From a virus (Duplodnaviria; Heunggongvirae; Uroviricota; Caudoviricetes): a stretch of 64,000 nucleotides of DNA. The notes beneath the pieces were generated by a model that was not told the origin of the DNA, did not search any database, and was given only the letters and a program-made list of their open reading frames with translations. This document shows, piece after piece, positions 386-51,823 of the stretch (positions within the stretch are counted from its first letter, which is position 1; every line of letters starts with the position of its first letter). The position numbers were made by a program, and so were the translations under genes. The stretch lies in IMG/VR virus record IMGVR_UViG_3300036790_000223; one strand, written 5' to 3'.

Positions 386-400
386 ATGTAAACGGCTTAT
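386..400. promoter_or_regulatory. GTAAACGG-family motif copy (ATGTAAACGGCTTAT)
   Basis: 15-nt string identical to 10465-10479; intergenic, AT-rich for this genome. Confidence 0.4.
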
Positions 401-403
401 ATG

Positions 404-476
404 TGCCCCCACCTGGAGCCGAACCAGGGACCTCCACCGCGTCATGGTGGCGCTCTGACCACTGAGCTACGGGGGC
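404..476 (-). tRNA. tRNA-Val(GAC)
   Basis: Cloverleaf: GCCCCCG acceptor, GCTCAGTGGTCAGAGC D-arm, CCACC-ATGACGC-GGTGG anticodon arm, GGTTCGGCTCC T-arm. Confidence 0.7.
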
Positions 477-522
477 TAGATCCCCCGGGAGAGCAAACGG
501 GGAAGTCCCTCCCGGGGGACGC

Positions 523-786
523 TCATTTGCCCTTACGGGCCTTACGGGTTGCAGCGTTGGCCTTGCCCATCTCACGGCGGATCTTACGCTGTTCTTCACG
601 CTGGCGCTTCTGCGCGGCCTTCTGGTCTTTGGCTGCCTTGGCGGCGGCGGCCTTTTTCGCTGCTTGCTCCCGCTTGACCCGCTGGACCATCTTGTAGCGG
701 ATCACGTCTGCGTCGTGGGTGGCCTTGTTGCGTTGGTAGCGGGGGTCATTCAGCGCGGCACCTGGCGGCTTCGGCTTGCGGAACAT
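523..786 (-). CDS. highly basic Lys/Arg/Ala-rich small protein
   Basis: 87-aa ORF rich in K/R/A/Q; possible nucleic-acid binding. Confidence 0.45.
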   Translation of the reverse strand: MFRKPKPPGAALNDPRYQRNKATHDADVIRYKMVQRVKREQAAKKAAAAKAAKDQKAAQKRQREEQRKIRREMGKANAATRKARKGK

Positions 787-789
787 GGG

Positions 790-1134
790 CTAGAACCAGC
801 CCGACTTCTTCTTGCCCTGGCTCCGCATCCGCTTCTCGCGGTCCTTGGCTTCCTTGTCGCGCTTGGCCTTCTCCTTGCGCTCCTTGTCGGCCTTGACCTT
901 CTCCGCAGCCCGGGCGCGCTCATCCTTGATGGTCTGCACCCGGCGCTTGGCGACTTCCTTCTCGACCCGGCGGGCTTCCTTCATGTTCCACTTGTGCTGA
1001 TCGATCTCGCGCTGGTGCTTCTCGTCAGCCATGCGCTGCGCACGGGCAGCCGCGATGTCAGCCTTGCGGCCCTTCTGCTGCTTGGCCCGCTCCTTTTCCC
1101 AGGCGGCCTTGTTGTTCGGTCCCCACACTCCCAT
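790..1134 (-). CDS. charged K/E/R-rich coiled-coil-like protein
   Basis: 114-aa ORF, KERAK-type charged repeats; adjacent to the previous basic ORF. Confidence 0.5.
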   Translation of the reverse strand: MGVWGPNNKAAWEKERAKQQKGRKADIAAARAQRMADEKHQREIDQHKWNMKEARRVEKEVAKRRVQTIKDERARAAEKVKADKERKEKAKRDKEAKDREKRMRSQGKKKSGWF

Positions 1135-1165
1135 GGGGTTCTCCCTTCCTCTTCCTGTTCCTGCG

Positions 1166-1238
1166 CGGCCCTGACCGGACTTGAACCGGCACGCTCCACC
1201 TTGACAGGGTGGCGCACTACCAATTGTGCTACAGGGTC
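1166..1238 (-). tRNA. tRNA-Asp(GTC)
   Basis: Anticodon arm CCACC-CTGTCAA-GGTGG, T-arm GCCGGTTCAAGTCCGGT. Confidence 0.75.
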
Positions 1239-1343
1239 ATGTGCGTGAGGCGGCTGCCAGGGTAACCCCTCACGCTGTCCCGCTTGGTGCTCGCGGTGCG
1301 GGCAGACCGCAGGGCTCCTGCCCCTCATGCCCCTGACCCAGCG

Positions 1344-1414
1344 CTCCGGCGCGTGGAATCGAACCACGATAGCCAAGTTAACAGCCTGGTGTCCTGCCGT
1401 TGAACGACACCGGA
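1344..1414 (-). tRNA. tRNA-Asn(GTT)
   Basis: Anticodon loop CTGTTAA, T-arm CGTGGTTCGATTCCACG, acceptor pairs with one G-U. Confidence 0.6.
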
Positions 1415-1466
1415 ATGGTGACCCCTAGGGTCCGCACCCCCCGAGCGGTGCAGACCCTAGGGTCCG

Positions 1467-1540
1467 TAGCGAGGGCGGGATTTGAACCACGCGACCTCCG
1501 GGTTATGAGCCCGGCGAGCTACCGAACTGCTCCACCTCGC
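1467..1540 (-). tRNA. tRNA-Met(CAT), initiator-like anticodon stem
   Basis: GCGAGGTGGAGCAGTTCGGTAGCTCG..CCGGG-CTCATAA-CCCGG (three G-C pairs); T-stem pairing imperfect. Confidence 0.6.
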
Positions 1541-1557
1541 GTAACCAAGTATACCGT

Positions 1558-2130
1558 TTACTGCCTCTCAGCGGTAGCGGCTTTGAAACCAAACGTCATC
1601 AGCATCAGAGCCTCGGCAATAGTGCCCCCCGGGTCGCCGCTGGGCATCATGACGACCTCGCAGTCCCGCTCCTGCTCCACGTGGTAGAACCGGTCAGCGG
1701 TAGTGAAGGCCATGATGTGGCGGGCCTCGATGCGCTCCGGCTGCAGGTAGAGGTCATGCTCGGCTACGGCTCGCTTCAGCCGCTCAGCCACCGCTGGGTC
1801 GTCGTTTTGCTCAGCTGCGGTGATGTTCACGCCCCAGCCCTCAAACCGGAAGGCCATCCCGATCCAGCCGGGTGGCAGCTCGGGCACGGGGGGCTTCGGC
1901 ATCTCCAGGATCGAGTCGGGCAGGCTGTGGTAGTGCATCAGCCCCTCCCCCAGCCGCATCAGCAGCTGCGGTGGCGGGGCCAGATCCCACCACATGCTTG
2001 ACAAGCCCACGGTCACCAGGGCTGCACTGTTGTCACTCTCGGTCAGAAAGTACAGCTCGGGGTGCTCGTCCCATTCGGTGCGGGCGGTCAGCGTTGCGGT
2101 CAGCAGCGCCCCGATCGCTTCGTCGTTCAT
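1558..2130 (-). CDS. hypothetical protein
   Basis: ORF 1558-2181; internal ATG at 2130 (MNDEAIG) taken as start; no motif. Confidence 0.5.
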   Translation of the reverse strand: MNDEAIGALLTATLTARTEWDEHPELYFLTESDNSAALVTVGLSSMWWDLAPPPQLLMRLGEGLMHYHSLPDSILEMPKPPVPELPPGWIGMAFRFEGWGVNITAAEQNDDPAVAERLKRAVAEHDLYLQPERIEARHIMAFTTADRFYHVEQERDCEVVMMPSGDPGGTIAEALMLMTFGFKAATAERQ

Positions 2131-2203
2131 TCCTGTTCCTTTCCCTGCTGAGCCGCCAGCCTGTCCCCGTGACCACCTCACGGGGACAGGCTGGCGGGTC
2201 CCT

Positions 2204-3811
2204 TTAGCGACGCCGGGCGAGGCCGTTCTCGTCCACGACCTTGAACGGGGTGCCGACGCCCTCCAGCACGGTGCGCTGGTTGACCTGCTCCATCTCGGCC
2301 CGCACCTGGCGCCGCAGCAGGGCGTCGATGGTGGCGTCGTCGCTGCCTTCGGCGGCAGCTTCCATCATCTCCTTCTGACGGCGCAGACCCCGGGCTGCCT
2401 CCACCAGGTCAGCGGTGGTGACCTTGGAGGGGCGGCCCTGGTTCTTGGCGATGGAGTAGCGCACTGCCCGGCGGATGGCCTCCACGGCGAACGCTGGCAC
2501 GTAGCCATCGAACGCCTCAACCAGCTCGTCGGTGTACTCGATGTCCGGCCGCAGCGCTGCCGCAATGTGCGACTCCACCAGGTCCTTCAGCTTGGACGGG
2601 GCCACCGCACCCAGGTGGATGACGGCGTCGATCCGGCCTGGCCGCAGCATGCCCTTGTCGATCACGTCGGGGAAGTTGGTGGTGAAGCCCACCATCACCT
2701 CGGTGTTCTTGACGGCTGCGTTGTCCATCGCGTCCAGCACGGTGGAGATACGAGCCCGGGAGTGCTGGGCGTTGGCCAGGTTGTCAGCATCCTCGATCCA
2801 CACGACCGCCGGGGAGTACAGCTGGGCGGTCCTCAGTGCCTCCAGGGGGCTGTCTTCCGGCCGCACCAGGATGAAGGTCCACCCGGCGGCTACGGCGTGC
2901 TGAGCGGTCAGTGCACCGGCCTGGGTCTTGCCCGTGCCGTACGGACCCTCCAGCAGGAACGCCCGCTTGAGTGGCAGGTGGTTCATCCGCATCTGGTCGG
3001 AGTGGTCAATCACCGACCAGATGTTGGCGTGCAGGTCGACCAGGGTGTCGTCGTTGTAGACGCACCGGGTCGGGTCGACCGACTGCTCGTCCCAGAACCC
3101 GGGGTTGTCGCTCCCGTCGATGGCCCGGCCCCGGTAGATGGAGCGCTCCTTCAGCTCCTCCTCCATTGCCCGGAAGAACCCCTCGATGCGGGCCTGGTGC
3201 TTGCGGGGGGCGGTCACGGTGATGTGCGACAGGAAGCCCTTGTTCGGGTCCTTCGCCATCCCGATCTCGAAGTCCGCATCCAGCATCTCAAAGTGGATCT
3301 CGTCCCAGGGCACCTGCATGGACTCGTTCACGCCCACGGGGATGGAGATCAGCTGCGGCCGGTGCTCCTGGCCGAAGAAGTCGAACCAGCTCTTGCCGAT
3401 GCCTGCGGTGCCGAACACCCGCATCATGGCCCGGTTAAAGGCCGCTGCCCCGTCGAAGGGGCGGTAGGGGAACGTGCGGGAGAAGTCGATCTTCTTCTCC
3501 TGCTGCTCCTCGTACTGCCGCAGCGTCTTGCAGGCTCGCTCGATGCCACCGGGTCCCGCCAGGTGCGCGGGGAGACGGATCTTGTCGCCTGCGAACTCGA
3601 TGGAGTCATCCCCTACCGCTGCCCCGCCCAGCTCGCTGAGTACCTCCAGCAGCCGTGCGGTGTCCTTGTCGGCCTGGGTCATGACCCGGCCGGTCTTGGC
3701 GGTTGCGGTTGTCACTTCCTGTTCACCTTCCTGTTCCTTGCGGTCGTCGATGAGCTGGCGCATAAGGCTGTCTAGAGCCGCGCGTAGCTCGGTTTTCTGT
3801 GCGCCACTCAT
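2204..3811 (-). CDS. AAA+ ATPase
   Basis: Walker A LLEGPYGTGKT, Walker B VVWIEDADNL, sensor/Arg-finger-like region; 535 aa. Confidence 0.8.
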   Translation of the reverse strand: MSGAQKTELRAALDSLMRQLIDDRKEQEGEQEVTTATAKTGRVMTQADKDTARLLEVLSELGGAAVGDDSIEFAGDKIRLPAHLAGPGGIERACKTLRQYEEQQEKKIDFSRTFPYRPFDGAAAFNRAMMRVFGTAGIGKSWFDFFGQEHRPQLISIPVGVNESMQVPWDEIHFEMLDADFEIGMAKDPNKGFLSHITVTAPRKHQARIEGFFRAMEEELKERSIYRGRAIDGSDNPGFWDEQSVDPTRCVYNDDTLVDLHANIWSVIDHSDQMRMNHLPLKRAFLLEGPYGTGKTQAGALTAQHAVAAGWTFILVRPEDSPLEALRTAQLYSPAVVWIEDADNLANAQHSRARISTVLDAMDNAAVKNTEVMVGFTTNFPDVIDKGMLRPGRIDAVIHLGAVAPSKLKDLVESHIAAALRPDIEYTDELVEAFDGYVPAFAVEAIRRAVRYSIAKNQGRPSKVTTADLVEAARGLRRQKEMMEAAAEGSDDATIDALLRRQVRAEMEQVNQRTVLEGVGTPFKVVDENGLARRR

Positions 3812-3861
3812 GGGGCGGCTTTCCCTTCCTGAGTTCCTAACCTTACCTGCTGGTACCGCGT

Positions 3862-3932
3862 AGCCCCAACGGGATTTGAACCCGTGCTACTGCCTTGAAA
3901 GGGCGGCGTCCTGGACCGCTAGACGATGGGGC
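3862..3932 (-). tRNA. tRNA-Glu(TTC)
   Basis: Acceptor GCCCCAT, anticodon loop CTTTCAA, T-arm CGGGTTCAAATCCCG. Confidence 0.7.
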
Positions 3933-3982
3933 CTGGGGGGGTGGTGGAGCAGGAGACGAACAAAAACACACCCCACCACCCG

Positions 3983-4057
3983 TACCGGGTACCGGATTCG
4001 AACCGGCGTTACCAACTTGAGAGGCTGGCGTCCTGGGCCTGGCTGGACGAACCCGGC
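3983..4057 (-). tRNA. tRNA-Glu(CTC)
   Basis: Acceptor GCCGGGT/ACCCGGT, anticodon arm CCAGC-CTCTCAA-GTTGG, T-arm GCCGGTTCGAATCCGGT; long D-loop. Confidence 0.55.
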
Positions 4058-4061
4058 ATGC

Positions 4062-4199
4062 TCACTTCTTCTTGCGCTTCTTACGCGCTTCCTTCTCGGC
4101 CTTGCGCTGTTCCCGCTCAGCGCGAGTACAGCTAGCACATAGGCTACCCGCTATTGCGGAGTTCTTACGGCATTTCCAGCAGGTTCCCCATTCGGCCAT
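4062..4199 (-). CDS. small Zn-ribbon protein with basic tail
   Basis: MAEWGTCWKCRKN..CASC..KKRKKK; internal ATG of ORF 4062-4310. Confidence 0.4.
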   Translation of the reverse strand: MAEWGTCWKCRKNSAIAGSLCASCTRAEREQRKAEKEARKKRKKK

Positions 4200-4209
4200 T
4201 TCCTTTTTC

Positions 4210-4416
4210 CTATTCGTAGATCTTGCCGGTGCCCTTGCATCGTGGGCACTGCCCGGCGTCCTTCCAGCCACGGCCCGCTGGTACCCGGACCTGGATCTTG
4301 CCCCGGCCACCGCAGTTCGGGCATTTGGTCTTCCGCTGCACCTTCACCTTTATCTTCATGCGTGCCCCGCCAAGGTACTGACCCCTGTTCCATCGGGTAA
4401 AGGCCGACTGCATCAC
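4210..4416 (-). CDS. DnaJ-type CxxCxGxG zinc-finger minigene (paralog 1)
   Basis: CPNCGGRGK ... CPRCKGTGK; start may be ATG 4359 or 4413. Confidence 0.5.
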   Translation of the reverse strand: MMQSAFTRWNRGQYLGGARMKIKVKVQRKTKCPNCGGRGKIQVRVPAGRGWKDAGQCPRCKGTGKIYE

Positions 4417-4436
4417 CTTAATGCTTGCGGGGCTCG

Positions 4437-4510
4437 TAGGGCGACTGCGACTTGAACGCAGGACCGGCGGATTATGAGTCCGCTGCTCTGACCAGCTGAG
4501 CTACCGCCCC
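4437..4510 (-). tRNA. tRNA-Met(CAT) copy 2
   Basis: GGGGCGGTAGCTCAGCTGGTCAGAGC..GCGGA-CTCATAA-TCCGC..CTGCGTTCAAGTCGCAG. Confidence 0.7.
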
Positions 4511-4516
4511 GCGTCG

Positions 4517-4588
4517 TACCGAGAACGGGGAACGACCCCATGACCTCTGCGTTATGGGCGCAGCGCTCTGCCACTGAGCTACCTCGGC
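4517..4588 (-). tRNA. tRNA(CAT) copy 3, atypical (C33, non-canonical T-loop)
   Basis: GCCGAGGTAGCTCAGTGGCAGAGCG, CTGCG-CCCATAA-CGCAG; T-loop GTCGTTC unusual; may be Ile-lysidine type or a pseudogene. Confidence 0.4.
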
Positions 4589-4592
4589 GTGG

Positions 4593-4667
4593 TGGGCATG
4601 GGAGGAATTGAACCTCCGACCTTCTCCGTATCAGGAAGCTGCTCGAACCGGACTGAGCTGCATGCCC
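4593..4667 (-). tRNA. tRNA-Ile(GAT)
   Basis: Acceptor GGGCATG/CATGCCC, anticodon loop CTGATAC, T-arm GGAGGTTCAATTCCTCC. Confidence 0.6.
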
Positions 4668-4726
4668 CTGTGGATGGGCGCGAGCTGGGCAAGGGAGTGC
4701 AATACAAGCCTCAGCTCGCACCCGTG

Positions 4727-4813
4727 CGGCACCGGTACGATTTGAACGCACGGGACGCTTTCACGCCCTATCGTTTTCGAGACGATTGCCTTAGGCCACT
4801 CGGCCACGGTGCC
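4727..4813 (-). tRNA. tRNA-Ser(CGA), type II
   Basis: GGCACCGTGGCCGAGTGGCCTAAGGC, loop CTCGAAA, long variable arm, T-arm GTGCGTTCAAATCGTAC. Confidence 0.75.
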
Positions 4814-5049
4814 TTGAACCTGTTGTGTGGGGGGAAAATCCCCGTACCCGCCCTCACCGTTCCACGATACCTGATCAGCGTGATGGTAGTGCGCGGTAAT
4901 GCTGCCCTGTTCCATGAGTGCATCGTGCTGGGCTGCCTTGTTAACTGCTGATGCGGCCCGGCGCATCTCCTGGTGGCAGGGGTGCAAACCCTGAAGGGTA
5001 GAATCTCACGCTCGCCTCAGAACCGTGTACCACGGTTACCGACTTCCCC

Positions 5050-5529
5050 CTACGGCTTCAGTTCGCCCATCTCGGTGGCCCAGTTGGCGGCCTGAATGGT
5101 GTCGTCCAGCTGCCGGTACTCCCGGGCCAGCCGGTCAGCTTCGGCTCGCAGGACCGGCACGTCCAGCAGGGTCTCGTCCTTCAGCTCGGATCGAGCCCGG
5201 CGCCCGTACAGGCTGCGCTGGCTGGGGGTGGCGCAGTCGGCCAGGTCACTGATGAACCCGCGTTCGGCGTTCAGCTGGTCCCTCTTGGCTAGCAGCTGGG
5301 TGATGGTGCGGCCATCACTGACCGTGGTGGCCGCGTTGGTCATGTTGATCTCGGCGGCACGGGCACTCAGCCTGACCATCAATGCCCGGACCTGGGTAGC
5401 CAGCTCGTTCGGGTCCTCAACCGGCTGTTCGCCTTCCTGGTGGATGGCGTTGGCCTTAGCCCTGGCCCGCAGCTGGGCTACCTCCTTCTTCATGTCGGAA
5501 AACTCGCTGAGCGCTGTCGCCAGCTTCAT
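5050..5529 (-). CDS. coiled-coil protein of unknown function
   Basis: 159-aa ORF with heptad-like charged repeats. Confidence 0.55.
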   Translation of the reverse strand: MKLATALSEFSDMKKEVAQLRARAKANAIHQEGEQPVEDPNELATQVRALMVRLSARAAEINMTNAATTVSDGRTITQLLAKRDQLNAERGFISDLADCATPSQRSLYGRRARSELKDETLLDVPVLRAEADRLAREYRQLDDTIQAANWATEMGELKP

Positions 5530-5551
5530 CCTCTCTCTCCTTTCGTTAACG

Positions 5552-5640
5552 CGGAGCCTGAGCGATTCGAACGCTCGACAGGGTTGCCCCTGAACCGCCT
5601 TAGCAGGGCGGCGCCATAAACCGGACTAGGCGAAGGCTCC
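5552..5640 (-). tRNA. tRNA-Ser(GCT), type II
   Basis: GGAGCCT acceptor, CCGCC-CTGCTAA-GGCGG, long variable arm, TCGAGCGTTCGAATCGCTC. Confidence 0.75.
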
Positions 5641-5831
5641 ATATTTTGAAGGTGAGGTCTGCTAGGGGTCAACATGCCCGCCTCCTCCGCAGGCTCCCGG
5701 GTGCGCGCTTTTGGGATCGTCCCATTGCCCAGGGCTCGGTACCTCACCGGGGGCTGGCAGGTGCTCCCCCCGGGGGGTGGCCCCTTACGCGGCCTTGCAC
5801 AGGACGTATCGCCCATACCTGCCAGCCTTTG

Positions 5832-5916
5832 TACGCCGGGGGGGACTCGAACCCCCACGTCCTCTCGGACACCTGGGTCTGAGCCAGGCGCGTCTGCCAA
5901 TTCCAGCCACCAGCGC
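5832..5916 (-). tRNA. tRNA-Leu(CAG), type II
   Basis: D-arm TGGCTGGAATTGGCAGACGCG like E. coli Leu, CCTGG-CTCAGAC-CCAGG, variable hairpin GTCCGAGAGGAC, GGGGGTTCGAGTCCCCC. Confidence 0.75.
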
Positions 5917-5999
5917 AAGCAGTTGGGTCACGATCACCGGAATCGGCCGGTACCTTGGCGGCTAGCCGCTGCACCTTGGTTCGCATCGTGACCCAGCCG

Positions 6000-6072
6000 A
6001 GCGGATGACCGGGTTCGAACCGGCGACCTTCACCTTGGCAAGGTGACGCGCTGCCAACTGCGCCACATCCGC
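6000..6072 (-). tRNA. tRNA-Gly(GCC)
   Basis: GCGGATG acceptor, TCACC-TTGCCAA-GGTGA, GCCGGTTCGAACCCGGT. Confidence 0.75.
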
Positions 6073-6129
6073 ATGTGCCACCGCTCTTGGCGACGCGCTG
6101 TGCGCCGTCCAGCAGGAGCGCGGTGGCCA

Positions 6130-6474
6130 CTATCCTGCTGTTTCACCATCGGCTACATGAGCCTCAGGATACCGGCATGAGCGGCAGAGGGTCTTGATCC
6201 AGCCGTGTGCCTTGGTGGCCTGGCATACCCCTGGCTTGCCGCATTGCTCGCATGTCTCACCTGACCTGGCCTCAAACCGGCCCAGGACCCTGGCGATCTC
6301 GATTGGGGCGTGCTCCAGGTAGACCCGCAAGCACCCGAACTTCTCCTTGACCTGGACGGTCTGGTAGGCCGGGTTGATCGCTGACAGTGCTGTGTGCATC
6401 TCGTCCAGCAGACCGTGCCATCCAGGGCCAACATCGTTTTTGTAGTCGGTGACCGGCCCGCCCTGATTGAACAA
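6130..6474 (-). CDS. hypothetical protein with C-terminal Cys4 cluster
   Basis: 114-aa ORF; CEQCGKPG..CRSC. Confidence 0.5.
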   Translation of the reverse strand: MFNQGGPVTDYKNDVGPGWHGLLDEMHTALSAINPAYQTVQVKEKFGCLRVYLEHAPIEIARVLGRFEARSGETCEQCGKPGVCQATKAHGWIKTLCRSCRYPEAHVADGETAG

Positions 6475-6548
6475 CTCGCATCATTCCCTTCCTCGGGGCG
6501 ACCCCCAGGCAGCGCCATGGCCGTATGGGTAAAACCTGGAGGTCACCG

Positions 6549-6621
6549 AGCCCCCTTACGGAATCGAACCGTAGACCTTCTCCTTACCATGGAGACACTC
6601 TGGCCGCTGAGCTAAGGGGGC
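6549..6621 (-). tRNA. tRNA-Thr(GGT)
   Basis: GCCCCCT acceptor, TCTCC-ATGGTAA-GGAGA, TACGGTTCGATTCCGTA. Confidence 0.75.
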
Positions 6622-6646
6622 GTGCGGCCGGTTGCCCGGCCGGTGG

Positions 6647-7003
6647 TCAGGCGGACTCGTCAGCCCGCAGCTTCTCTAGCACGATGCGCACGTCGGCGTA
6701 CCGGGTGTCGGGGTGGTCGTTGAAGGCCGCAATGCCCAGCGGCGTGATGGGGCCGTCCTTCCGCCACCGGCGTTCTGGCCACTGGCTGTTCGCGACCCGC
6801 TGGAACGCCCTGGCGAACCGGTTCCGGTCCCGCTGGGGAATCCCGGCGGCGTCCATGGCTCCTAGCACGCAGTGCCGCTCCATGCCCCGGCCACCGTGGT
6901 AGGTGCTCTTGACCCAGAACCGGCGGCTGGGGATAGCCTCCAGCACCCGGGCTGCCATCTCGCTGGTCTTCATCATGTGCGCTCTTCCGCCATCCTTTCC
7001 CAT
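6647..7003 (-). CDS. hypothetical protein
   Basis: 118-aa ORF. Confidence 0.45.
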   Translation of the reverse strand: MGKDGGRAHMMKTSEMAARVLEAIPSRRFWVKSTYHGGRGMERHCVLGAMDAAGIPQRDRNRFARAFQRVANSQWPERRWRKDGPITPLGIAAFNDHPDTRYADVRIVLEKLRADESA

Positions 7004-7221
7004 TCGGCCACCGTCATGAACCGACGGTGGCGCCCGTCCACCAGGACCATCACCCGCTGGTTAACCCGGGTGGCCTCGTGGGCAGCTGCAACCTGTTCCT
7101 TGGTGCGGACCGGCTTGCTCCTGCTTGCGCCAGAGTTCCCGCCTGCCCTCGCCGGGTTGGAGCCCTTCGGCTTGGGTGCCCGGTACTTCAGCTTCAGGTT
7201 CTGGCCTGTCATCTCCTGCAT
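6973..7221 (-). CDS. hypothetical small protein
   Basis: 82-aa ORF overlapping previous by 31 nt. Confidence 0.4.
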   Translation of the reverse strand: MQEMTGQNLKLKYRAPKPKGSNPARAGGNSGASRSKPVRTKEQVAAAHEATRVNQRVMVLVDGRHRRFMTVAEWERMAEERT

Positions 7222-7244
7222 TGCACTCCCCTGCTTTCCCTTCC

Positions 7245-7394
7245 TTATCCGTACCGGGCTACCCAGCGGTCCAGGAATGCCTGGCCATTGCAGCGCAGAA
7301 TGCGCCGCTTCTTGTTAATCCTACGGTGGTTTTGTGTCCAGTACCGCTGCTTAGACGGCTTGTCCTTGTACTGCTTGCCTTTGTGGGCTCCCAT
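7245..7394 (-). CDS. possible small basic protein (49 aa)
   Basis: MGAHKGKQYKDKPSKQRYW...; below ORF-track cutoff. Confidence 0.25.
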   Translation of the reverse strand: MGAHKGKQYKDKPSKQRYWTQNHRRINKKRRILRCNGQAFLDRWVARYG

Positions 7395-7411
7395 GGTGTG
7401 CTCCCTTTCCG

Positions 7412-7486
7412 AGCCCCCCGCCGGTCTCGAACCGGCAACCTTCGGCTTACAAAGCCACTGCTCTAGTCCACTTGAGCTAGGGAGGC
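7412..7486 (-). tRNA. tRNA-Thr(TGT)
   Basis: GCCTCCC/GGGGGGC acceptor, GTGGC-TTTGTAA-GCCGA, GCCGGTTCGAGACCGGC. Confidence 0.75.
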
Positions 7487-7647
7487 TAGCCTGCGCCGAA
7501 ACTGTGCGCGATGGAGATCAGGCCGCTGGCGACCTCGTTAAAGAGGTCGTAGGCGGTGTGCAAAGCCCAGGCGACAAAAGACGGGGCCTTGATGAGCAGC
7601 CAGATAACGATGGCCCACCCCAGCAGCTTCTTCAAGAACTGAATCAT
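7486..7647 (-). CDS. small transmembrane protein (53 aa)
   Basis: MIQFLKKLLGWAIVIWLLIKAPSFVAWAL..; the longer track ORF runs over tRNAs, so the internal start is used. Confidence 0.4.
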   Translation of the reverse strand: MIQFLKKLLGWAIVIWLLIKAPSFVAWALHTAYDLFNEVASGLISIAHSFGAG

Positions 7648-7667
7648 TCCTTCTCCCTTCCCTAACG

Positions 7668-7742
7668 AGCCTGTGGGCCGGGTTGAACGGCCTGCCTCCG
7701 CTGTACGAGAGCGGCGCTCTGCCTTCCGTGAGCTACACAGGC
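7668..7742 (-). tRNA. tRNA-Thr(CGT)
   Basis: GCCTGTG/CACAGGC, CCGCT-CTCGTAC-AGCGG, GGCCGTTCAACCCGGCC. Confidence 0.75.
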
Positions 7743-7808
7743 ATTGTAGGTGGGCAGGGGGGAGGCGTCGCCCTGGGCTTGCAGCTAAGGGCACCCCCCT
7801 GCCACCCG

Positions 7809-7880: not shown

Positions 7881-7881
7881 G

Positions 7882-7954: not shown

Positions 7955-7978
7955 TAGCCCGGCCGGAGCCGGGGTTGG

Positions 7979-8074: not shown

Positions 8075-8095
8075 CTGGTTCCCTCCTCTCCTGCG

Positions 8096-8167: not shown

Positions 8168-8171
8168 ATGC

Positions 8172-10430: not shown

Positions 10431-10464
10431 CTGCCTGCTAGTAGCTTACCGGATGTGACGCCAT

Positions 10465-10479
10465 ATGTAAACGGCTTAT
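10465..10479. promoter_or_regulatory. GTAAACGG-family motif copy (ATGTAAACGGCTTAT), upstream of the leftward HNH/tRNA block
   Basis: Identical to 386-400; sits between an imperfect long hairpin (10487-10565) and the HNH start. Confidence 0.45.
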
Positions 10480-14012: not shown

Positions 14013-14025
14013 CCCGTTTACGCAT
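14013..14025. promoter_or_regulatory. GTAAACGGG motif copy (minus orientation: ATGCGTAAACGGG)
   Basis: Intergenic, upstream of leftward gene starting at 13977. Confidence 0.4.
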
Positions 14026-14050
14026 TATACCTCATGAGCCCCCCTATGGG

Positions 14051-14722: not shown

Positions 14723-15259
14723 ATGAACGTAAAGGGTGGAACCGGGGCAGTTATTTCCCGTGACGATGTAGAGAAGGCCCTGTGGCAGGTGACCGGCTGG
14801 CAAGGCGACCAGGCCGCCATCGACGGGGTCATGGTGGTCATTGAAGCCTGGAACGCCAGTGCCACCGAGGCTCTGACGCGCTCCAGTGACAGCTTCCGCA
14901 ACGGCTATTACCACGCCCTGGTCACCATGGCCAGTGCCATTCTGGAAACCGGCGGCAAGATGCGCCTGGTGCCACCGGGGGCTGAGCCAGTGCTGCGCGC
15001 TGGTGACGTGGACGAGCTGGCAGAAGCCATCGTAGCCCGGCTGCGGCCTAATACCGCTGCAGTTGAGGCAGCGGAGCGCATCCGTGAGTTCTACGGCGGG
15101 CCAGCTCCACTGCCCGATGGGGTGGTCCCGGCAGAGAAGACCTGCACCGGGTGCGGGCGCTCTAAGCCGCTGGAAACCGGGTTCTATAAGGACGCCAAGG
15201 GTAAGTTTGGCCGTAAGGCCCGGTGCAAAGAGTGCGAAAAGGGCCGGGAGGCTGCATAA
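14723..15259 (+). CDS. hypothetical protein with C-terminal Zn ribbon
   Basis: CTGCGRSKP...CKECEKG at C-terminus. Confidence 0.5.
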   Translation: MNVKGGTGAVISRDDVEKALWQVTGWQGDQAAIDGVMVVIEAWNASATEALTRSSDSFRNGYYHALVTMASAILETGGKMRLVPPGAEPVLRAGDVDELAEAIVARLRPNTAAVEAAERIREFYGGPAPLPDGVVPAEKTCTGCGRSKPLETGFYKDAKGKFGRKARCKECEKGREAA

Positions 15260-20556: not shown

Positions 20557-20636
20557 TTGGTTTCCCTTCCCTTCCTTTAGGTGCCCGGGTTAAGAGGCAC
20601 ACTGCGCGGTAGTATATACGCTGCCAGCGTAAGGAG

Positions 20637-20645
20637 GTAAACGGG
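20637..20645. promoter_or_regulatory. GTAAACGGG copy embedded in RBS region (GGAGGTAAACGGGTATG)
   Basis: In the divergent intergenic region 20557-20646, which also has a TAGTATATAC box. Confidence 0.3.
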
Positions 20646-26918: not shown

Positions 26919-26927
26919 CCCGTTTAC
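26915..26927. promoter_or_regulatory. GTAAACGGGTTAC motif copy (minus orientation)
   Basis: Intergenic between 26918 and 26988. Confidence 0.4.
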
Positions 26928-26987
26928 AAAAGGGCGGTCAGCGAGTACGCTTACCGCAGGGAAGGGAACTACGGAAGGGAAACCACC

Positions 26988-45400: not shown

Positions 45401-47068
45401 TTCATCTCTGGCGCTGGGCAATGGCCCCGGCAGCGGTTCGCGCACATCGTCTTCGAGGTCGTTCGCGACCAGGTGGACGGGGTCGTAGACCGGGCCTGGC
45501 TCAACTACGCCGGTTGGGTCTACACCACCAACGGACCCGGCGACACCAACCCGTACGCCTTCATCCCCGGCAACGACTACCTGAACGACCTGGTAGCCCG
45601 GGGAGCCAGCGAGCCTCCGCTGCTGCCGCAGGGCATCCCGCCCTGGATCTACCCGCAGACCTCACCGGTCAGCGCACCGAAGCAGCGCCCCGCCCGGGGT
45701 GGGCGCGTCTACAGCCGCAGCGGTTCTCACGGTGGACTCGGCCCGGCCCTCACCGCATTGCGCGGCCCGGTTGCAGCTGCCCGGCGCAAGCTGCCACCCC
45801 GGGGCAGGGTCTACTCGGCCCGGGGCACGTTCTCCGGCAGCGGACCCGTGCTCAAGGCGCTGGCCAAGCCGCTGGCTGCCGCCCTGCGCATCCTGCCGCC
45901 GCAGGGGCGGGCACTGTCTCGCCGGGGTTTGCTCAGCGGCACTGGAGCGGTTCTCAAGGCGCTAAGTGCCCCGGTCCGTGCCCGGCCTAAGCTGCCACCC
46001 CGTGGGCAGGTAACCTCCCGGGCGGGCATCCCGTTCACCGGGTTCGGCCCGCCGCTCACCCTGCTGCGCTCCCCGGTCAAAGCAGCGCCGAAGCTCCCAC
46101 CACGGGGCAGGTCCGCAGCGAACACCGGCACGTTCGGTGGTCAGGGTGCAGCGGTCTACCCGATCCACCAGCCGGTCTCGGTTCACCATCCGCTGCCGCC
46201 ACGTGGACGCGTCTACAGCAACCCCGGTGGCCCGGTTGTTGCTCCGCCGCCACCGGGGTTCGGTCCTGCGCTCACGCCGCTGCACATGCCGGTGCGTGCC
46301 AGCTGGCCTAAGCAGGTCAGTGGTGGCACTGGCCATGGACTGCGCGGTACCCGCAATGGCGTTGGCCCGGCGCTCTACCCGCTGCACCTGCCGGTCAAGG
46401 CGGCACCGAAGCTACCACCCCGGGGCCGGGTCTACCTGCTGCCGGTGCGGGCGGTGCAGAGCCCAGCGGCACCTCCGCTGCATGTTCCAGTCCGGGCGGC
46501 CTGGCCTCAGCGCATCAGCGGTGGCACTGCTCACGGCTTGCGAGGCTTCCGTGGCGGCGCAGGACCAGCACTGGTTCCGCTGCGCACCCCGGTCAAGGCT
46601 GTTCCTAAGCTGCCGCCACGTGGCCGGATCTTCCAGTTCCTGACTCGGGCGTTCCAGTCACCACCGGTTCCTCCGCTGCATGCTCCAGTGCGGGCAGCAC
46701 CGCACAAGGCACCTGCCCGGGGCCGGATCATCACCAGCGCCGTGCGGCTGGTCCCGTTCATTCCCACGTCGGGACCGGCACTCACCCCGCTGCGGATGCC
46801 AGTCCGTGCCCGGCCGAAGCTCCCGCCGCGAGGCTGGTGCTACACCACCCCGCCGTACGTGGCACCGGGTCCGCCATCGGGTCACGCCACCGGCTGGAGC
46901 GTGGGCACCCCGCAGTCTGCCTGGATCACTGGCCTGCTGCAGGGTGCCTGGGAAAGCGGCCTGCCCGCTAGCCCCATTGCCTGGAACCCGAGCGGCCCGC
47001 AGGCCGCATGGCAGAGTGGCCCGCTGACTTCTGCCTGGGAAAACGTGTCGCCAATGACCGGAGGGTGA
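42434..47068 (+). CDS. giant tail fibre / receptor-binding protein (1544 aa) with central glycosidase-like domain and C-terminal Arg-rich modular repeats
   Basis: Long T/S/G/A-rich N-part; central W/aromatic-rich domain (IDVFVTFEG, GIFFDQF); ~20 copies of P-V-R-A-x-P-K-L-P-P-R-G-R-V-Y. Confidence 0.8.
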   Translation: MTVSSNGTPTVIAGITGSASISVTGQWPTNPTAPAAGDLLVAVIGGYGTTSCTVPTAPSGWTLWNWCYGITAGTGARSLTTVTAYYIKNSTGSDTVPTFSATTAGTAADNGLRCVIYDLSDSGGSTPVLWTDGITALPVAGTATVFTGPVPAGSLGIASATISQGTTAATNTWTTPSGFTAATGNETASLRSQFGSFYTSSAPTTGNGMSVAIVHSRTSTEQPAIALVAAPPSSSGVRRFQASPYQAPTTAAAVLTSHTFAAQPDELIVASAGVGNGVGTAPTSLVAVDNTSATLTALVTELAGADFGLAGVFAEDAGATPAVTSVTVTAAPSTVHDPCLVVYRFAGAAVTADQTGTTAHGTTATLSITPAQTGSVIVGASGDDGSTALTPNASSLGYTSTTGGAGDRINAYMGLAYTTASSAVTVGWSTAPTALGNAAAEIIPAPPAANPAPLYPLRRPVRAQALPRRGGRVYRSGLPNRILTNNFEGGSSGTTITTTNSNGISGAAFDVVSIGTSATLAFDNTEAAHGLLSMKVATGGTSTTSLAEWTFSEGPQLTIYFRLYLFLSATPTAAISPFMVRSGASVAASLLLTTPGTLQLRDGTNTTQVTFTTHPPTGSWYRIEGYVTGASGTGGAISASLYSPLDSLTPVETHTVTGINTTGAISAYWFGQANTVASSGPFWIDDIGISPVGFLGPAAFPPVTSGPPLTALDGPVRAPVPARRKGGIARAMSPLAISYAGPPLTALASPVQGRRRPTPRGRVYGISRPAVTVAPPTPAPLYPLSKPVRAVIPARTRGGRVYQTTAPTVPAIQTGAAPWYLFPTFPQWTVLESSTGLLPAVAIMNNGNGDVVWDSTWGALATALHAKGIKLLGYVYTQFGTRPEGDVETAIGNYLQPGFTPGLDTVDGIFFDQFNNLTGSESYYNDLCISVKSQFEAVGSGANSPLIWGNPGTAIAASYLTLPIDVFVTFEGPITAYQNFTPFNVNASGFISGAGQWPRQRFAHIVFEVVRDQVDGVVDRAWLNYAGWVYTTNGPGDTNPYAFIPGNDYLNDLVARGASEPPLLPQGIPPWIYPQTSPVSAPKQRPARGGRVYSRSGSHGGLGPALTALRGPVAAARRKLPPRGRVYSARGTFSGSGPVLKALAKPLAAALRILPPQGRALSRRGLLSGTGAVLKALSAPVRARPKLPPRGQVTSRAGIPFTGFGPPLTLLRSPVKAAPKLPPRGRSAANTGTFGGQGAAVYPIHQPVSVHHPLPPRGRVYSNPGGPVVAPPPPGFGPALTPLHMPVRASWPKQVSGGTGHGLRGTRNGVGPALYPLHLPVKAAPKLPPRGRVYLLPVRAVQSPAAPPLHVPVRAAWPQRISGGTAHGLRGFRGGAGPALVPLRTPVKAVPKLPPRGRIFQFLTRAFQSPPVPPLHAPVRAAPHKAPARGRIITSAVRLVPFIPTSGPALTPLRMPVRARPKLPPRGWCYTTPPYVAPGPPSGHATGWSVGTPQSAWITGLLQGAWESGLPASPIAWNPSGPQAAWQSGPLTSAWENVSPMTGG
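45650..46900 (+). repeat. intragenic array of ~26-34-aa modules (GPALTxLxxPVRAxPKLPPRGRVY)
   Basis: At least 14 consecutive modules here; further copies near 43790, 44560-44830. Confidence 0.7.
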
Positions 47069-48331: not shown

Positions 48332-48399
48332 GTAGGCTGAACAAGCGAAAGGCCCCCGTGCCTGCTTGCGCCGGGGGCTGGGATGTGGTTGGGGTGATG

Positions 48400-48433
48400 C
48401 CCTGCCCCGGCGGGTTGCAGCGCCGGGGCAGGG
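48400..48433. terminator. hairpin, 13-bp perfect arms, between convergent blocks (a second hairpin lies at 48351-48379)
   Basis: CCCTGCCCCGGCG ggttgcag CGCCGGGGCAGGG. Confidence 0.45.
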
Positions 48434-48462
48434 GTGTCACCTGGTGATATCGCGCAGTTCCC

Positions 48463-49157: not shown

Positions 49158-50198
49158 TCAGACCGTGGCGACCTCCTGCGCCAGCTTGAACGCACGAGCC
49201 TTCTGGGCCTCAGGCGTGAGCAGGGTGCGGTTGAGGTAGGTCTCCTCGCTGCGGTAGGCCCGCACGTGGTCCAGGTACTCACCCGCGCACTGCACCAGCC
49301 CGTAGGCGGTGCCCTTCACGTGAGCGCCCGTGGGCGAGGCGAACAGCGCCTTCAGCTTGCCGCGAGCCTCGCTGACGTTGTTCATCACGCGCTCGCTGGC
49401 CATGCCAACTGGCGGCTCGGGCAGGAACTGGTCGATGAACAACTGCCGCTGCTTCGCGGTCACCTTGATCTTCATCAGTGTCTCCATCAGCTCCAGGTAG
49501 TGCGCGAACTCCTGGCGCGTCGCGGTCACCGCAGCCTTCGCGTCTTCGACCCGGTCACGCCAGTCGCCCTTGTGGACGAACCGGTAGGTCGCTCCGGTGC
49601 GGTCGCCTTCCAGCTCCGCAGCGCGGAAGGTGTTGGCGCAGACGATCCGCACGGCGGTGGCGCGAGCGGCGCACGCCGCGTAGCCATCGTGACGGTTGGT
49701 CAGGCCCAGGTAGGGCATCGTGTAGGTGCCCTTGTCACCGGGGATGGTAACCGGCTCATCGAGGCGGGCCAGTGCCCAGACCGCCCGGCCGCCTTCGAGG
49801 CTTCCGGCGGTCTCGTAACGGACACCCTTCTCCTGGTCCAGGATGGCCTCCATGATCTCGCCCATCTCGGTGTTGGTGATCAGCGAGTAGGTCCCCTGGT
49901 CCTTGTGGTACAGGGTGGTGTTGTTGTCGCTGCGGACGATGCGCCCCCAGTTGTCGTCGGGCTCGAACTGGCCCTCGATCACATGGCCGTCGCTGTCGCG
50001 CACCTTGCGGTAGCTGGCCTCGTACTCCGGGTCCCAGTCCAGGCCAGCGAGAACGCGGGCCTCTTCCCATCCACCTTCGGGATAGTCGTCCAGGACCTTG
50101 CCTTCGCGGTGCCAGGGCACCTCGCGGACGCTGAACATGTCGTCAACGTTGGCTGGCATGGGTGATGTGCCTTCCTTTCCTGTTCCTATTGGGCTCAT
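49158..50198 (-). CDS. DUF932 phage/plasmid-related protein
   Basis: Length and conserved blocks (TNRHDGYAA..., GLVQCAGEYLDH) typical of the DUF932/TIGR03299 family. Confidence 0.65.
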   Translation of the reverse strand: MSPIGTGKEGTSPMPANVDDMFSVREVPWHREGKVLDDYPEGGWEEARVLAGLDWDPEYEASYRKVRDSDGHVIEGQFEPDDNWGRIVRSDNNTTLYHKDQGTYSLITNTEMGEIMEAILDQEKGVRYETAGSLEGGRAVWALARLDEPVTIPGDKGTYTMPYLGLTNRHDGYAACAARATAVRIVCANTFRAAELEGDRTGATYRFVHKGDWRDRVEDAKAAVTATRQEFAHYLELMETLMKIKVTAKQRQLFIDQFLPEPPVGMASERVMNNVSEARGKLKALFASPTGAHVKGTAYGLVQCAGEYLDHVRAYRSEETYLNRTLLTPEAQKARAFKLAQEVATV

Positions 50199-50433
50199 CA
50201 GTGCGGGATCTGCCCGCAGACCCGGTTGCCCGGGTTTCGCCCTTTACTTCCCCATTGCCCACGGGCATGGGGGGCGGTGTGCCTCACCGGCTGGCTGGCA
50301 GATGCACCCGGTGAGCCGGGGCCGCAGGTCAAACCTGCGGTCCAGCTCTGCGTGCAGCTGGGCTTCCATCGTGAGCCACTGGGGGACGCTGATGTTCACT
50401 GGTTTCCTTTCCGTTTCCCGTCCTGTAGTAGTG

Positions 50434-50464
50434 TAAACGGGTTTACCCTGTGCTTTATTTCCCC
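50434..50464. repeat. 31-bp direct repeat copy A (GTAAACGGGTTTACCCTGTGCTTTATTTCCC); contains palindrome GTAAAC-GG-GTTTAC
   Basis: Identical to 51793-51823; intergenic. Confidence 0.8.
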
Positions 50465-50465
50465 C

Positions 50466-50825
50466 TCAGGTACCCAGAACCCGGCAGTTCGGGTGACCGC
50501 AGCGCTTGAGGCAGCTGCAGATCCTGAACTGGCCGCCACCTGAGCAGCGGGGGCAGTCCTGACGGGGCACCCGGGGGGTCTCCTCACGCCGGTTCCGGTG
50601 CACCATCAGGTCCTCCTCCACAGCGACGGTCACCTTCACGTGGCGGCCATCCCCGGTGGTCATGCGGAACACCGACTCGCCTGGTTCCACGGTGGGGGCT
50701 ACTCCGCCTTCCACCATGAACTCAGCCGCATCAAAGCCGTCCCTTTCGTAGGCCCACCCGTCCAGCGCGAGCACCATGCGCTCGGCTATCTCCCGGGCGT
50801 CGTCGTCCGTGTCGTGCATGTTCAT
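50466..50825 (-). CDS. hypothetical protein with C-terminal Cys cluster
   Basis: MNMHDTDDDAREIAER...CPRCSGGGQFRICSCLKRCGHPNC. Confidence 0.45.
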   Translation of the reverse strand: MNMHDTDDDAREIAERMVLALDGWAYERDGFDAAEFMVEGGVAPTVEPGESVFRMTTGDGRHVKVTVAVEEDLMVHRNRREETPRVPRQDCPRCSGGGQFRICSCLKRCGHPNCRVLGT

Positions 50826-51028
50826 GACTCCTCGTGTTCGATGCGATCTAGCGAGTTGGTGGCCCCGCTCTTGGCAACGAGCCGCTTGTGCTTGCGAATG
50901 ATCCGCTGAGCCCCCCAGCGCGTCCGTGCTATGCCGAGACCCTCTCCCCAGGGGGAGGGCCGCCCGTAGCTGACTGAGCGGTACCGGTCCAGCGGGTGAT
51001 AGGTCACCTGGTAGTAGGTGGGGTTCAC
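50822..51028 (-). CDS. hypothetical small protein
   Basis: 68-aa ORF, overlap-coupled. Confidence 0.4.
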   Translation of the reverse strand: MNPTYYQVTYHPLDRYRSVSYGRPSPWGEGLGIARTRWGAQRIIRKHKRLVAKSGATNSLDRIEHEES

Positions 51029-51372
51029 GGTGCCATCTCCTCTTCCAGCGCGCCCTGTGCACCATTCACCAGGGCGTGCAGCGCGGCCTCGCGGTAGACA
51101 TCCTGCAGGTGCTGCGGGACTCCAGTCCGTGCGCGGTGGTCAATCTGGCGCTTGAAGGTATCCAGCGCCATAGCTACTGCACCGTCCAGGGATTCGAGCG
51201 CCTGGGCGTCCAGCTGCTGGGGCTCTGCAGCGTCCTCGTTGTAGCCCTCCGCAAAGGCGGCAGCTAGCGGCCACTGGTCTGGCCCGTAGGTCTTCACGGT
51301 GCCGTAACCGGGGACGATGACGTGCTGCTGGCCGGTCACGGTGTTGCGGTAGACGTAGGCTCTCTTACTCAT
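51025..51372 (-). CDS. hypothetical protein
   Basis: 115-aa ORF. Confidence 0.45.
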   Translation of the reverse strand: MSKRAYVYRNTVTGQQHVIVPGYGTVKTYGPDQWPLAAAFAEGYNEDAAEPQQLDAQALESLDGAVAMALDTFKRQIDHRARTGVPQHLQDVYREAALHALVNGAQGALEEEMAP

Positions 51373-51385
51373 GCTTTTCCCTTCC

Positions 51386-51754
51386 TTAGAAATACTCGGC
51401 GTAGCGCTTGCTGCTGATGAAGGTGGTCTTGGAGCGGGTACCGGCGCGCTGCTCGTAGCGCTCCAGCTCGCGCTCCAGTTCCTGCTCGTAGGTCAGCGCA
51501 CCAATCTTCCGGGGGTGCTCCCCGGCGTCGGTGTCGCATTCCTTCCAGGTCTTGTCCCAGATCGGGGCGGTCAGGCCACCCCGGGCCTCGGCATCGGCCC
51601 AGTAGTCAAGGATTCGCTGCTGCGTCTCCTCGTCTGCCGGGAGGTACTCGATGATCCAGGTGCCGGGCTCGCCCTTGACCTTCTCGATCAGCTTGTACTG
51701 ACCGCCGTAGATGTCCGACTGAAAGTCGCTACGGTAGACGTCGCCTGCCTTCAA
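51386..51754 (-). CDS. hypothetical protein (TTG start)
   Basis: 122-aa ORF. Confidence 0.5.
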   Translation of the reverse strand: MKAGDVYRSDFQSDIYGGQYKLIEKVKGEPGTWIIEYLPADEETQQRILDYWADAEARGGLTAPIWDKTWKECDTDAGEHPRKIGALTYEQELERELERYEQRAGTRSKTTFISSKRYAEYF

Positions 51755-51792
51755 CTTCCTGTTCCTTTCCTAGTCCTTACCCTTGCACTATC

Positions 51793-51823
51793 GTAAACGG
51801 GTTTACCCTGTGCTTTATTTCCC
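51793..51823. repeat. 31-bp direct repeat copy B
   Basis: Identical to 50434-50464; in the divergent region between the 51754 (-) and 51838 (+) gene starts. Confidence 0.8.

Follow-up and report, generated by a model that had tools for sequence, protein, structure and literature searches.

Housekeeping sigma-70/sigmaA promoters are built from a -35 hexamer (consensus TTGACA) and a -10 hexamer (consensus TATAAT, with TAnnnT as the actinobacterial form), and the -35 box of the lac promoter is TTTACA. In cluster A mycobacteriophages, the short asymmetric repressor sites termed stoperators (13 bp) hold a -35-like TTGACA and are scattered intergenically. The PeSL units of T4-type phages, reportedly described by Arbiol and colleagues in 2010, are said to combine a repeated early promoter with a stem-loop and to border shuffled gene modules. 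Among extracytoplasmic function (ECF) sigma factors, sigmaH of C. glutamicum has the consensus -35 gGGAAta and -10 (t/c)GTTgaa, with the core GGAAt-N18-19-GTT and tolerance of any base at -31 (PMC10012870; PMC6338062), and its strong promoter PtrxB1 carries GGAATAA (PMC10012870). Here we compare these systems with a short motif, GTAAACGG (read on the opposite strand as CCGTTTAC), that recurs in 64,000 nucleotides (nt) of DNA of a tailed virus of the Caudoviricetes (IMG/VR record IMGVR_UViG_3300036790_000223), hereafter the window. We conclude that this motif is probably a promoter hexamer used in two architectures and that the identity of two 31-nt copies stems from duplication or gene conversion at the borders of a gene cassette.

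Exact matches to GTAAACGG were found at eight positions of the window (388+, 1554-, 10467+, 14014-, 20637+, 26920-, 50433+ and 51793+) compared to 0.62 expected from 100 dinucleotide shuffles (standard deviation 0.76, maximum 3), none of which reached eight. Two more copies were detected just past the window (L002:14979 and L002:17060) in a metagenome assembly, L002, that is 100% identical to window positions 52209-64000 and runs 7 kb further; the window plus L002, 71 kb in all, was used in the counts below and holds ten copies against 0.75 expected. One copy was also found in a segment (L001:6357) of one of two strain variants, L001 and L003, that are 99.6% identical to the window phage. An earlier, sequence-only reading of this DNA had reported seven sites; its recurrence and enrichment were borne out by the composition-corrected count, whereas its number was one short, as the 1554 copy on the minus strand had been missed. 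The coordinates it had given as 386, 10465, 14013 and 26915 are correct and mark the starts of the longer strings that it described. Its statement that the motif is always intergenic is accurate for seven of the eight copies and not for the one at 1554-1561, which overlaps by 4 nt the stop codon of open reading frame (ORF) 1558-2130 (by the gene calls made in this analysis, in which the intergenic fraction is 15.5%).

Relatives of the window phage were used for comparison. By nucleotide search, the reference phage collection yielded no match to the window, IMG/VR yielded none when searched with a 21-mer of the repeat and a back-translation of the large terminase, and a first metagenome scan for relatives gave no usable match. 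A scan of IMG/VR and the metagenome collection with the class-2 pattern described below retrieved relatives L010/L052 (75% nt identity in the portal gene), L057, L086, L141, L153 and L223; of these, L141 is syntenic with the window at 70-76% nt identity across the DUF932, ParB-like and ADDT genes. Contig L005 (113 kb) is a relative with a large-terminase protein that is 60% identical.

At six of the ten sites the motif was found to form the upstream half of a two-block element. In these class-1 sites, CCGTTTAC(A) is followed after a spacer of 17-19 nt by (GG)TAnnnT, which can also be written CCGTTTACA-N17-19-TAnnnT. The combination of GTTTAC with TAnnnT at 16-19 nt occurs six times in the 71 kb compared to 0.09 expected, and none of 300 shuffles reached six; the canonical version, TTGAC with TAnnnT, occurs once compared to 1.28 expected. 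The -35 hexamers are TTTACA, TTTACC or TTTACG, matching TTGACA at four to five of six bases, and the -10 hexamers are TATAGT, TAAGCT, TATACT/TATATA, TACGCT, TATCCT and TAGGGT, with many class-1 -10 boxes preceded by GG. All six sites lie upstream of, and point toward, the next gene or operon. In L005, all eight YYGTTTACA-N17-TAnnnT sites are likewise upstream of a ribosome-binding site (RBS) and gene, and further class-1 sites were found in L007 and L141. When a two-block matrix was trained on L005 and L007 only, its top five sites in the window phage were 10467, 388, 26920 and the two sites outside the window. Taken together, the sequence statistics and the relative-trained model identify class 1 as a sigma-70/sigmaA-type promoter in which GTTTACA would serve as the -35 box.

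The best score of this model (23.3) was obtained for the promoter at 10443..10474 on the minus strand, where CCG-TTTACA (10471->10466) is separated by 17 nt from GG-TAAGCT (10448->10443), and an HNH endonuclease gene (9996-10430, minus; PHROG 4234, E=4e-31) begins 36 nt downstream of the promoter, at the head of a 26-gene tRNA array. There, the HNH ORF and tRNA-Trp (9974-10046) share the last 50 nt (3' end) of the tRNA gene. The second-best score (22.3) was that of the promoter at 364..395 (minus), in which CCG-TTTACA (-35, 392->387) precedes GG-TATAGT (-10, 369->364) by a 17-nt spacer; it lies 3' of tRNA-Val and faces ORF 131-313 (minus) and the tRNA at 1-65, and it was found independently by a consensus scan (TTTACA-17-TATAGT, 10/12 matches). 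These two promoters share the 15-mer ATGTAAACGGCTTAT (386-400 and 10465-10479), which the sequence-only reading had correctly described as identical and as bracketing the tRNA array; the bracketing arises because one promoter precedes the HNH gene and array and the other follows tRNA-Val. On the plus strand, the promoter at 26920..26951 (score 21.1) carries CCCG-TTTACA (26923-26928) and, after 17 nt, TACGCT (26946-26951), lies inside the rightward replication operon and faces ORF 26988-27311 (plus). The promoter at 20611..20644 (minus) scored weaker (14.7), with CCCG-TTTACC and then either TATATA (17-nt spacer) or TATACT (19-nt spacer); it faces an operon of ORF 20395-20556, a ParB-like gene (19538-20356) and a helix-turn-helix (HTH) protein gene (19035-19541), all on the minus strand, and on the plus strand the same bases overlap the RBS of ORF 20647-20880. 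Outside the window, L002:14979 and L002:17060 were assigned to class 1 by TATCCT and TAGGGT, respectively, 18 nt after the hexamer.

Class 1 resembles housekeeping promoters in its two hexamers 17-19 nt apart, in TTTACA (5/6 of the -35 consensus), in a TAnnnT -10 box that often follows G or GG, and in its position at operon heads toward the next gene. It differs in that the phage family uses almost only GTTTACA, never TTGACA with a proper -10, and in that conservation within the family reaches 2-6 nt upstream (CC, then TAW). A SigF/sigmaB-type promoter (GTTT-N15-17-GGGTA) was considered and rejected, as its spacing is exceeded by 2 nt and the L005 promoters lack GGGTA.

The two 31-mers are organized differently. 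Both are the identical string GTAAACGGGTTTACCCTGTGCTTTATTTCCC (50433-50463 and 51793-51823) at heads of leftward operons, exactly as the sequence-only reading had stated. At these sites, as at 1554 and 14014, no TAnnnT occurs at 16-19 nt after GTTTAC, and the start codons of the downstream genes are only 33 and 41 nt away; GTTTAC is therefore not a -35 box in the 31-mers. Instead, the 31-mers share a second block. The string TTATTTCC was detected four times in the 71 kb compared to 0.21 expected, each time on the plus strand with GTAAA[C/G] exactly 16 nt upstream, and on the minus strand these four sites read GGGAAATAA-N16-GTTTAC. Alignment of 11 such sites from six phages revealed that GGAAATAA and TTTAC are invariant and always 16 nt apart, that the spacer is variable, that G precedes GGAAATAA in 10 of 11, and that GTTTAC is present in 10 of 11, the other being CTTTAC in a doubtful site at 14758. 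L141, L153 and L223 add sites beyond this alignment, and among 13 homologous sites from about nine related contigs GGGAAATAA and GTTTAC are invariant. With a matrix trained on relatives only, three class-2 sites of the window phage scored 25-35 compared to a shuffle maximum of 19.1. An RBS and start codon on the same strand follow GTTTAC by 25-73 nt in 13-14 of 14 class-2 sites, and at window 50433, L052:5421 and L052:5723 the site lies between co-directional leftward genes or just past a terminator hairpin. Since the start codon may be as little as 25-33 nt after GTTTAC, transcription should begin no more than about 10 nt past this block, which would make it -10-like. Thus, the blocks and their spacing define class 2 as a predicted bipartite promoter, GGGAAATAA-N16-GTTTAC, with GTTTAC as its downstream block.

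In copy A of the 31-mer (50433..50463, minus; score 28.4), GGGAAATAA (50463->50455), a 16-nt spacer and GTTTAC (50438->50433) are followed 33 nt later by the RBS and GTG start codon of a 51-aa ORF (50244-50399), then by a type II hammerhead (50187-50242) and a DUF932 gene (49158-50159). Copy B (51793..51823, minus; score 25.5) occupies the divergent region between ORF 51386-51754 (minus) and a ParB-like gene (51850-52512, plus), with the start codon of a 122-aa ORF 41 nt after GTTTAC; its blocks and spacing are kept at the orthologous sites L007:4380 and L141:3922. A possible weak site of the form GGGAAATAA-N16-CTTTAC was located at 14729..14758 (minus), within the 5' end of rightward ORF 14723-15259, with leftward ORF 14051-14614 starting about 105 nt further downstream; its score of 13.6, against a median of 12.2 for the shuffle maxima, is not significant by itself.

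Other assignments of the 31-mer blocks were examined and set aside. GTTTAC as a -35 box finds no -10 after it, and a distance of just 25-27 nt separates it from the start codon in L010 and L052:5723. TACACT or TACGAT as the -10 is not kept in relatives, which have TACCTG, TACATG or TACGTA. The strict 9-nt invariance of GGGAAATAA and the missing -10 argue against an UP element, an assignment that may hold for the two sites with a downstream TAGGGT. GTAAAC as an ECF -35 box would call for a CGT-type -10 about 16 nt downstream, and by eye this was absent at all sites.

The sequence-only reading had proposed a conserved promoter element as one of two explanations, and this proposal was right in kind; its treatment of all copies as a single kind of site did not hold, since four window copies constitute a -35 box and the two 31-mers the downstream block of a bipartite promoter.

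The remaining two copies fit neither class. At 1548..1561 (minus), GTAAACGG abuts a GG-extended -10 (GGTATACT, 1555->1548) located 7 nt before tRNA-Met (1466-1541, minus); a -35 to go with it is lacking, and GGAAATAA is absent in both orientations. A 15/16-nt match to the string GTAAACGGGTATACTT of this site recurs in the strain variants at L001:6357 and L003:3684, and the 1554 and L001:6357 copies have GTAAACGG(G)TATACTT in common, with the motif against the GG-extended -10. At 14014..14031 (minus), GGTATAAT (-10, 14031->14024) is followed by gc and then by GTAAACGG (14021->14014), which covers the expected transcription start of ORF 12649-13977 (minus). Elsewhere in the window, -10-only promoters were observed 7 nt before ATG at 14707-14725 (plus; GGGTATTAT-tgctgct-ATG) and 36564-36581 (plus; GGTATATT-accccccATG), and these would yield leaderless mRNAs, an arrangement common in Actinobacteria.

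Several observations weigh against a promoter hexamer in two architectures and temper our confidence in it. The copies at 1554 and 14014 fall outside both classes and abut -10-only promoters. In 8 of 14 class-2 sites the RBS of the divergent gene lies 2-27 nt beyond GGGAAATAA, so that a promoter for the opposite direction must overlap the element, which could itself be bidirectional or serve the other strand; no opposite-strand promoter overlapping the class-2 element was recognised. The bases 5' of GTTTAC, (T)AA(A)CC(C/T), are alike in both classes in the high-GC (G+C-rich) clade, which would not be expected of a hexamer recognised by two different sigma domains and could reflect copy-paste descent or a shared reader. 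Sites L002:17060 and L141:3922 hold all three blocks (GGAAATAA, GTTTAC and TAGGGT) and may be tandem promoters. All promoter calls are sequence-based. Finally, no sigma-70-family ORF was detected in the 71 kb of the window phage or in the partial class-2-bearing loci of relatives, and no class-2 site was found in 21 kb of L005, the relative that encodes a sigma factor; L005 seems to have gained this gene from a host in an isolated event.

One rival, which we regard as unlikely, would have the bipartite element act on the other strand or on both, with GTAAAC as a -35-like and TTATTTCC as a -10-like block through which a phage-specific factor would transcribe rightward operons (ParB-like/DNA-modification/terminase, portal and perhaps replication). 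Consistent with this, three of the four TTATTTCC sites of the window phage head rightward operons (14751, 51815 and L002:17082), the RBS of the rightward gene follows TTATTTCCC by 2-27 nt in 8 of 14 sites with no room for another promoter, and GTAAAC resembles some ECF -35 boxes, such as GTAAC(A/G) of C. glutamicum sigmaD (PMC6338062). However, window 50433, L052:5421 and L052:5723 have no rightward gene and instead a leftward stop codon or terminator, and a leftward RBS and start codon come after GTTTAC in 13-14 of 14 sites. TTATTT also lacks both the G/C-containing core of an ECF -10 and the A-11/T-7 pattern of sigmaA, and a start 7 nt past TATTTC would remove the Shine-Dalgarno sequence in three cases (the L002 portal, L141 and L086).

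Of similarly low probability, in our judgement, is the operator that the sequence-only reading had offered as its other explanation, namely a site GTAAAC-NN-GTTTAC at which a dimeric phage DNA-binding protein would overlap the promoters and switch them off or on, for example in early gene shut-off. The description of the motif as palindromic applies to the two 31-mers only, where a perfect 6-2-6 dyad, GTAAAC-GG-GTTTAC, is present at 50433 and 51793; near-dyads were found at 26920 (with GTAAACGGGTTAC), L002:14979 and L002:17060, and no second arm was detected at 388, 10467 or 14014. In support of an operator, all copies, those at 1554 and 14014 among them, lie on or directly against a core promoter element, a 5' extension TAWNCC is common to both promoter classes in the window phage, and one site has the gene of an HTH protein (19035-19541) downstream of it. 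The arm spacing nonetheless varies within the phage (2 nt at 50433 and 51793, 1 nt at L002:14979, and a 5-nt arm at 26920 and L002:17060), a flexibility uncommon among dimeric binders. The dyad GTAAAC-GG-GTTTAC arises solely from the GTAAACCC at the end of the spacer in the 31-mer promoter. In the homologous sites of relatives, GTTTAC alone of the two arms is conserved; the other arm falls in the variable spacer of the 13 homologous sites, orthologous and paralogous, and relatives lack the dyad or carry an altered one. The class-1 promoters of L005 have no dyad, and the pairs of identical 15-mers and 31-mers reveal that promoters have spread by copying, which accounts for shared flanks without selection. 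No binding protein was identified for this candidate operator. The operator claim thus was not upheld. Like the stoperators of cluster A mycobacteriophages, the motif is short, holds a -35-like hexamer and recurs in short intergenic gaps with its orientation tied to transcription; unlike stoperators, most copies have a properly spaced second promoter block, the copy number is much lower, and the 71 kb showed neither an immunity repressor nor an integrase.

A hairpin acting in RNA or DNA as an intrinsic terminator or processing site was rejected as highly improbable: in a simple scan, ACGGGTTTACCCTGT plus GCTTTATTTC came up as a terminator-like feature on the plus strand of both 31-mers, but folding energies are not better than those of shuffles on either strand (z -0.76 to +0.97), the stem has five pairs including a G-T and its bases are not conserved in relatives, no plus-strand gene terminates upstream of 50433, and Rfam has no family that matches the motif. 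Chance or composition is refuted for the set as a whole by the eight copies, by the two-block co-occurrences that none of 300 shuffles reached and by conservation of the blocks across relatives, although the copies at 1554 and 14014, taken alone, are near chance (0.62 expected, P(>=2) about 0.13).

We next consider how the two 31-mers came to be identical throughout, spacer included. They lie within 40-nt repeats that are 90% identical (50424-50463 and 51784-51823) and flank four small leftward genes of 119, 68, 115 and 122 aa; the genes span 50466-51754, the interval between the two copies is 50464..51792 (minus), and the block measures 1.36 kb. In L141, the DUF932 and ParB-like genes are divergent neighbours, and the 112 nt that separate them hold one class-2 promoter and no gene. 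In L007, the position of the cassette is occupied by three different genes, and a class-1 promoter is found where copy A sits. Because L141 has one class-2 promoter and no cassette, the identity of the 31-mers is best explained by a recent duplication or gene conversion at the cassette boundary and not by selection on the palindrome, and the block 50464..51792 is accordingly predicted to be an inserted or duplicated cassette. This arrangement resembles the PeSL cassettes of T4-type phages in that near-identical promoter copies flank a block of small early-type genes that varies among close relatives; it differs in that no conserved stem-loop is present and in the promoter type, the phage and the host group.

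A full-length match to the type II hammerhead ribozyme (Rfam RF02276) was observed downstream of copy A (50187-50242, minus) and at L007:3192-3246 (minus). The matches score 33.6 and 35.7 bits, just below the gathering score of 37, with all core motifs present (CUGAUGAG, GAAAC and GUC). In both phages the ribozyme match occupies the same place, the leader that separates the 51-aa ORF from DUF932 in the window, although the stem sequences differ; it would cut the transcript of the 50433 promoter. Variation between near-identical genomes was also evident elsewhere: window 55126-55864 (739 nt, with a 108-aa ORF) is replaced in the 99.6%-identical strain variants (L001:6005-6385 and L003:3333-3712) by a segment of about 380 nt that differs in sequence and has its own small ORF and a GTAAACGGGTATACT site.

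Class-2 promoters would be read by an ECF-type sigma factor, either that of the host or an unrecognised phage factor. GGAAA followed by exactly 19 nt and GTT is present at every class-2 site, which is within the 18-19 nt of the actinobacterial ECF pattern, and the blocks and spacing of class 2 fit, as a resemblance in sequence, the sigmaH/sigmaE pattern GGAAN-N18-19-GTT. The likeness to ECF sigmaH/sigmaR/sigmaE promoters extends to the -35 block, gGGAAa-TAA compared to gGGAAta and to GGAATAA of PtrxB1, to the downstream (c)GTT, and to a predicted start a few nt after the GTT block. By contrast, class 2 has an extra A in the -35, GTTTAC instead of GTTgaa, and a viral setting. The search that gave no sigma-70-family ORF in the 71 kb or in the partial loci of relatives used a three-sequence ECF profile against all ORFs of at least 60 aa, together with Pfam/NCBIfam scans of about 50 window proteins. 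In L005, an ECF sigma factor of the TIGR02983 SigE family (E=3e-32) is encoded at 3268-3726; the proteins closest to it come from actinobacteria (Phytohabitans, Jatrophihabitans and Pseudonocardiales; Micromonosporaceae) and share 40-50% identity with it, and none of its best 120 matches is located on the 116,795-nt contig of the window phage. A scan of IMG/VR with this sigma factor yielded one locus, which is unrelated. The actinobacterial character of the L005 sigma factor supports an actinobacterial host and does not explain class 2. As a tentative extension, which we hold to be possible though on balance doubtful, a phage family with a thymidine-hypermodification cluster may drive its conserved small early-type genes from ECF sigmaH/sigmaE-like promoters by way of a host stress sigma or its own sigma or sigma-appropriating factor; the AACCCGTTTAC box is also the -35 of the housekeeping-type promoters, so that one factor, or a switch of sigma, could act on both sets, and the promoter copies would serve as recombination joints for cassettes.

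The window is part of an uncultured, tRNA-rich phage of about 117 kb and 65% GC; the GC content of the window is likewise 65%, and a 116,795-nt contig carries a large-terminase protein identical to that of the window phage. On the minus strand, 26 tRNA genes occupy 403-10046, with an additional truncated tRNA at 1-65. The large terminase subunit is encoded at 59479-61023, and other genes of the window encode a DnaB-type helicase, RecT, a YqaJ-type exonuclease, DUF932 and a ParB-like protein. A DNA-hypermodification set forms a cluster at 51850-57690 (plus) composed of the ParB-like gene, an amino-acid:DNA transferase (PF18724), a pyridoxal phosphate (PLP)-dependent enzyme (PF00291), P-loop nucleotide kinase 3 (PF18751) and a Tet/JBP dioxygenase (PF12851); the cluster is also kept in L007 and L141, and the DNA of the window phage is probably hypermodified. 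The host is probably an actinobacterium, judging from the TAnnnT -10 boxes, the leaderless -10-only promoters, DUF1707 and the actinobacterial SigE-family sigma factor of L005.

Additional features were noted in the sequence. A non-coding stretch of about 720 nt (57880-58600, plus) immediately precedes the putative genes for the small and large terminase subunits and holds 20 same-strand copies of C(C/T)GAC(A/T)(T/A)nCC, one every ~25-35 nt. It may serve as an origin, or as an array for packaging or terminase binding. The RBS regions upstream of most genes are long purine tracts such as GGAAAGGAAAC (e.g., 314-340, 26325-26354 and 31570-31606), with AACAGGAA present 18 times and AAGGGAAA 13 times in the window compared to fewer than one expected, a style common to all relatives. 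A 1544-aa ORF (42434-47068, plus) has internal repeats of 60-70 nt (families D1-D3, 100-320 nt apart), an atypical codon-position GC (GC1 ~ GC2) and a strongly negative GC skew, and could be a repeat-rich structural protein or the shadow of minus-strand genes. Strong operon-end hairpins, likely terminators, were found at 31499-31560 (CCGCATAGCTTACCGC...GCGGTAAGCTATGCGG, after ORF 30692-31498) and at 48345-48450, where two G+C-rich hairpins lie between convergent genes at 48.3-48.5 kb. In L005, four tandem 32-nt repeats (CGTTAGTTACGGATCCCCCGGTTCGGGCCAAG) at 6782-6920 are iteron-like in appearance.

Both promoter types belong to known promoter classes and are ordinary in kind, while the phage family that carries them is undescribed. 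For annotation, the two promoter models, CCGTTTACA-N17-19-TAnnnT and GGGAAATAA-N16-GTTTAC, are usable for an uncultured family of phages of about 110-117 kb without a close relative in the reference phage collection, and they flag operon heads, including the promoter of the 26-gene tRNA array. For genome evolution, promoter copies at the borders of an inserted cassette provide a concrete case of how a variable early region is remodelled. If class-2 promoters are indeed of ECF type, these phages would offer a tractable example of viral dependence on, or mimicry of, the stress-sigma regulon of a host.

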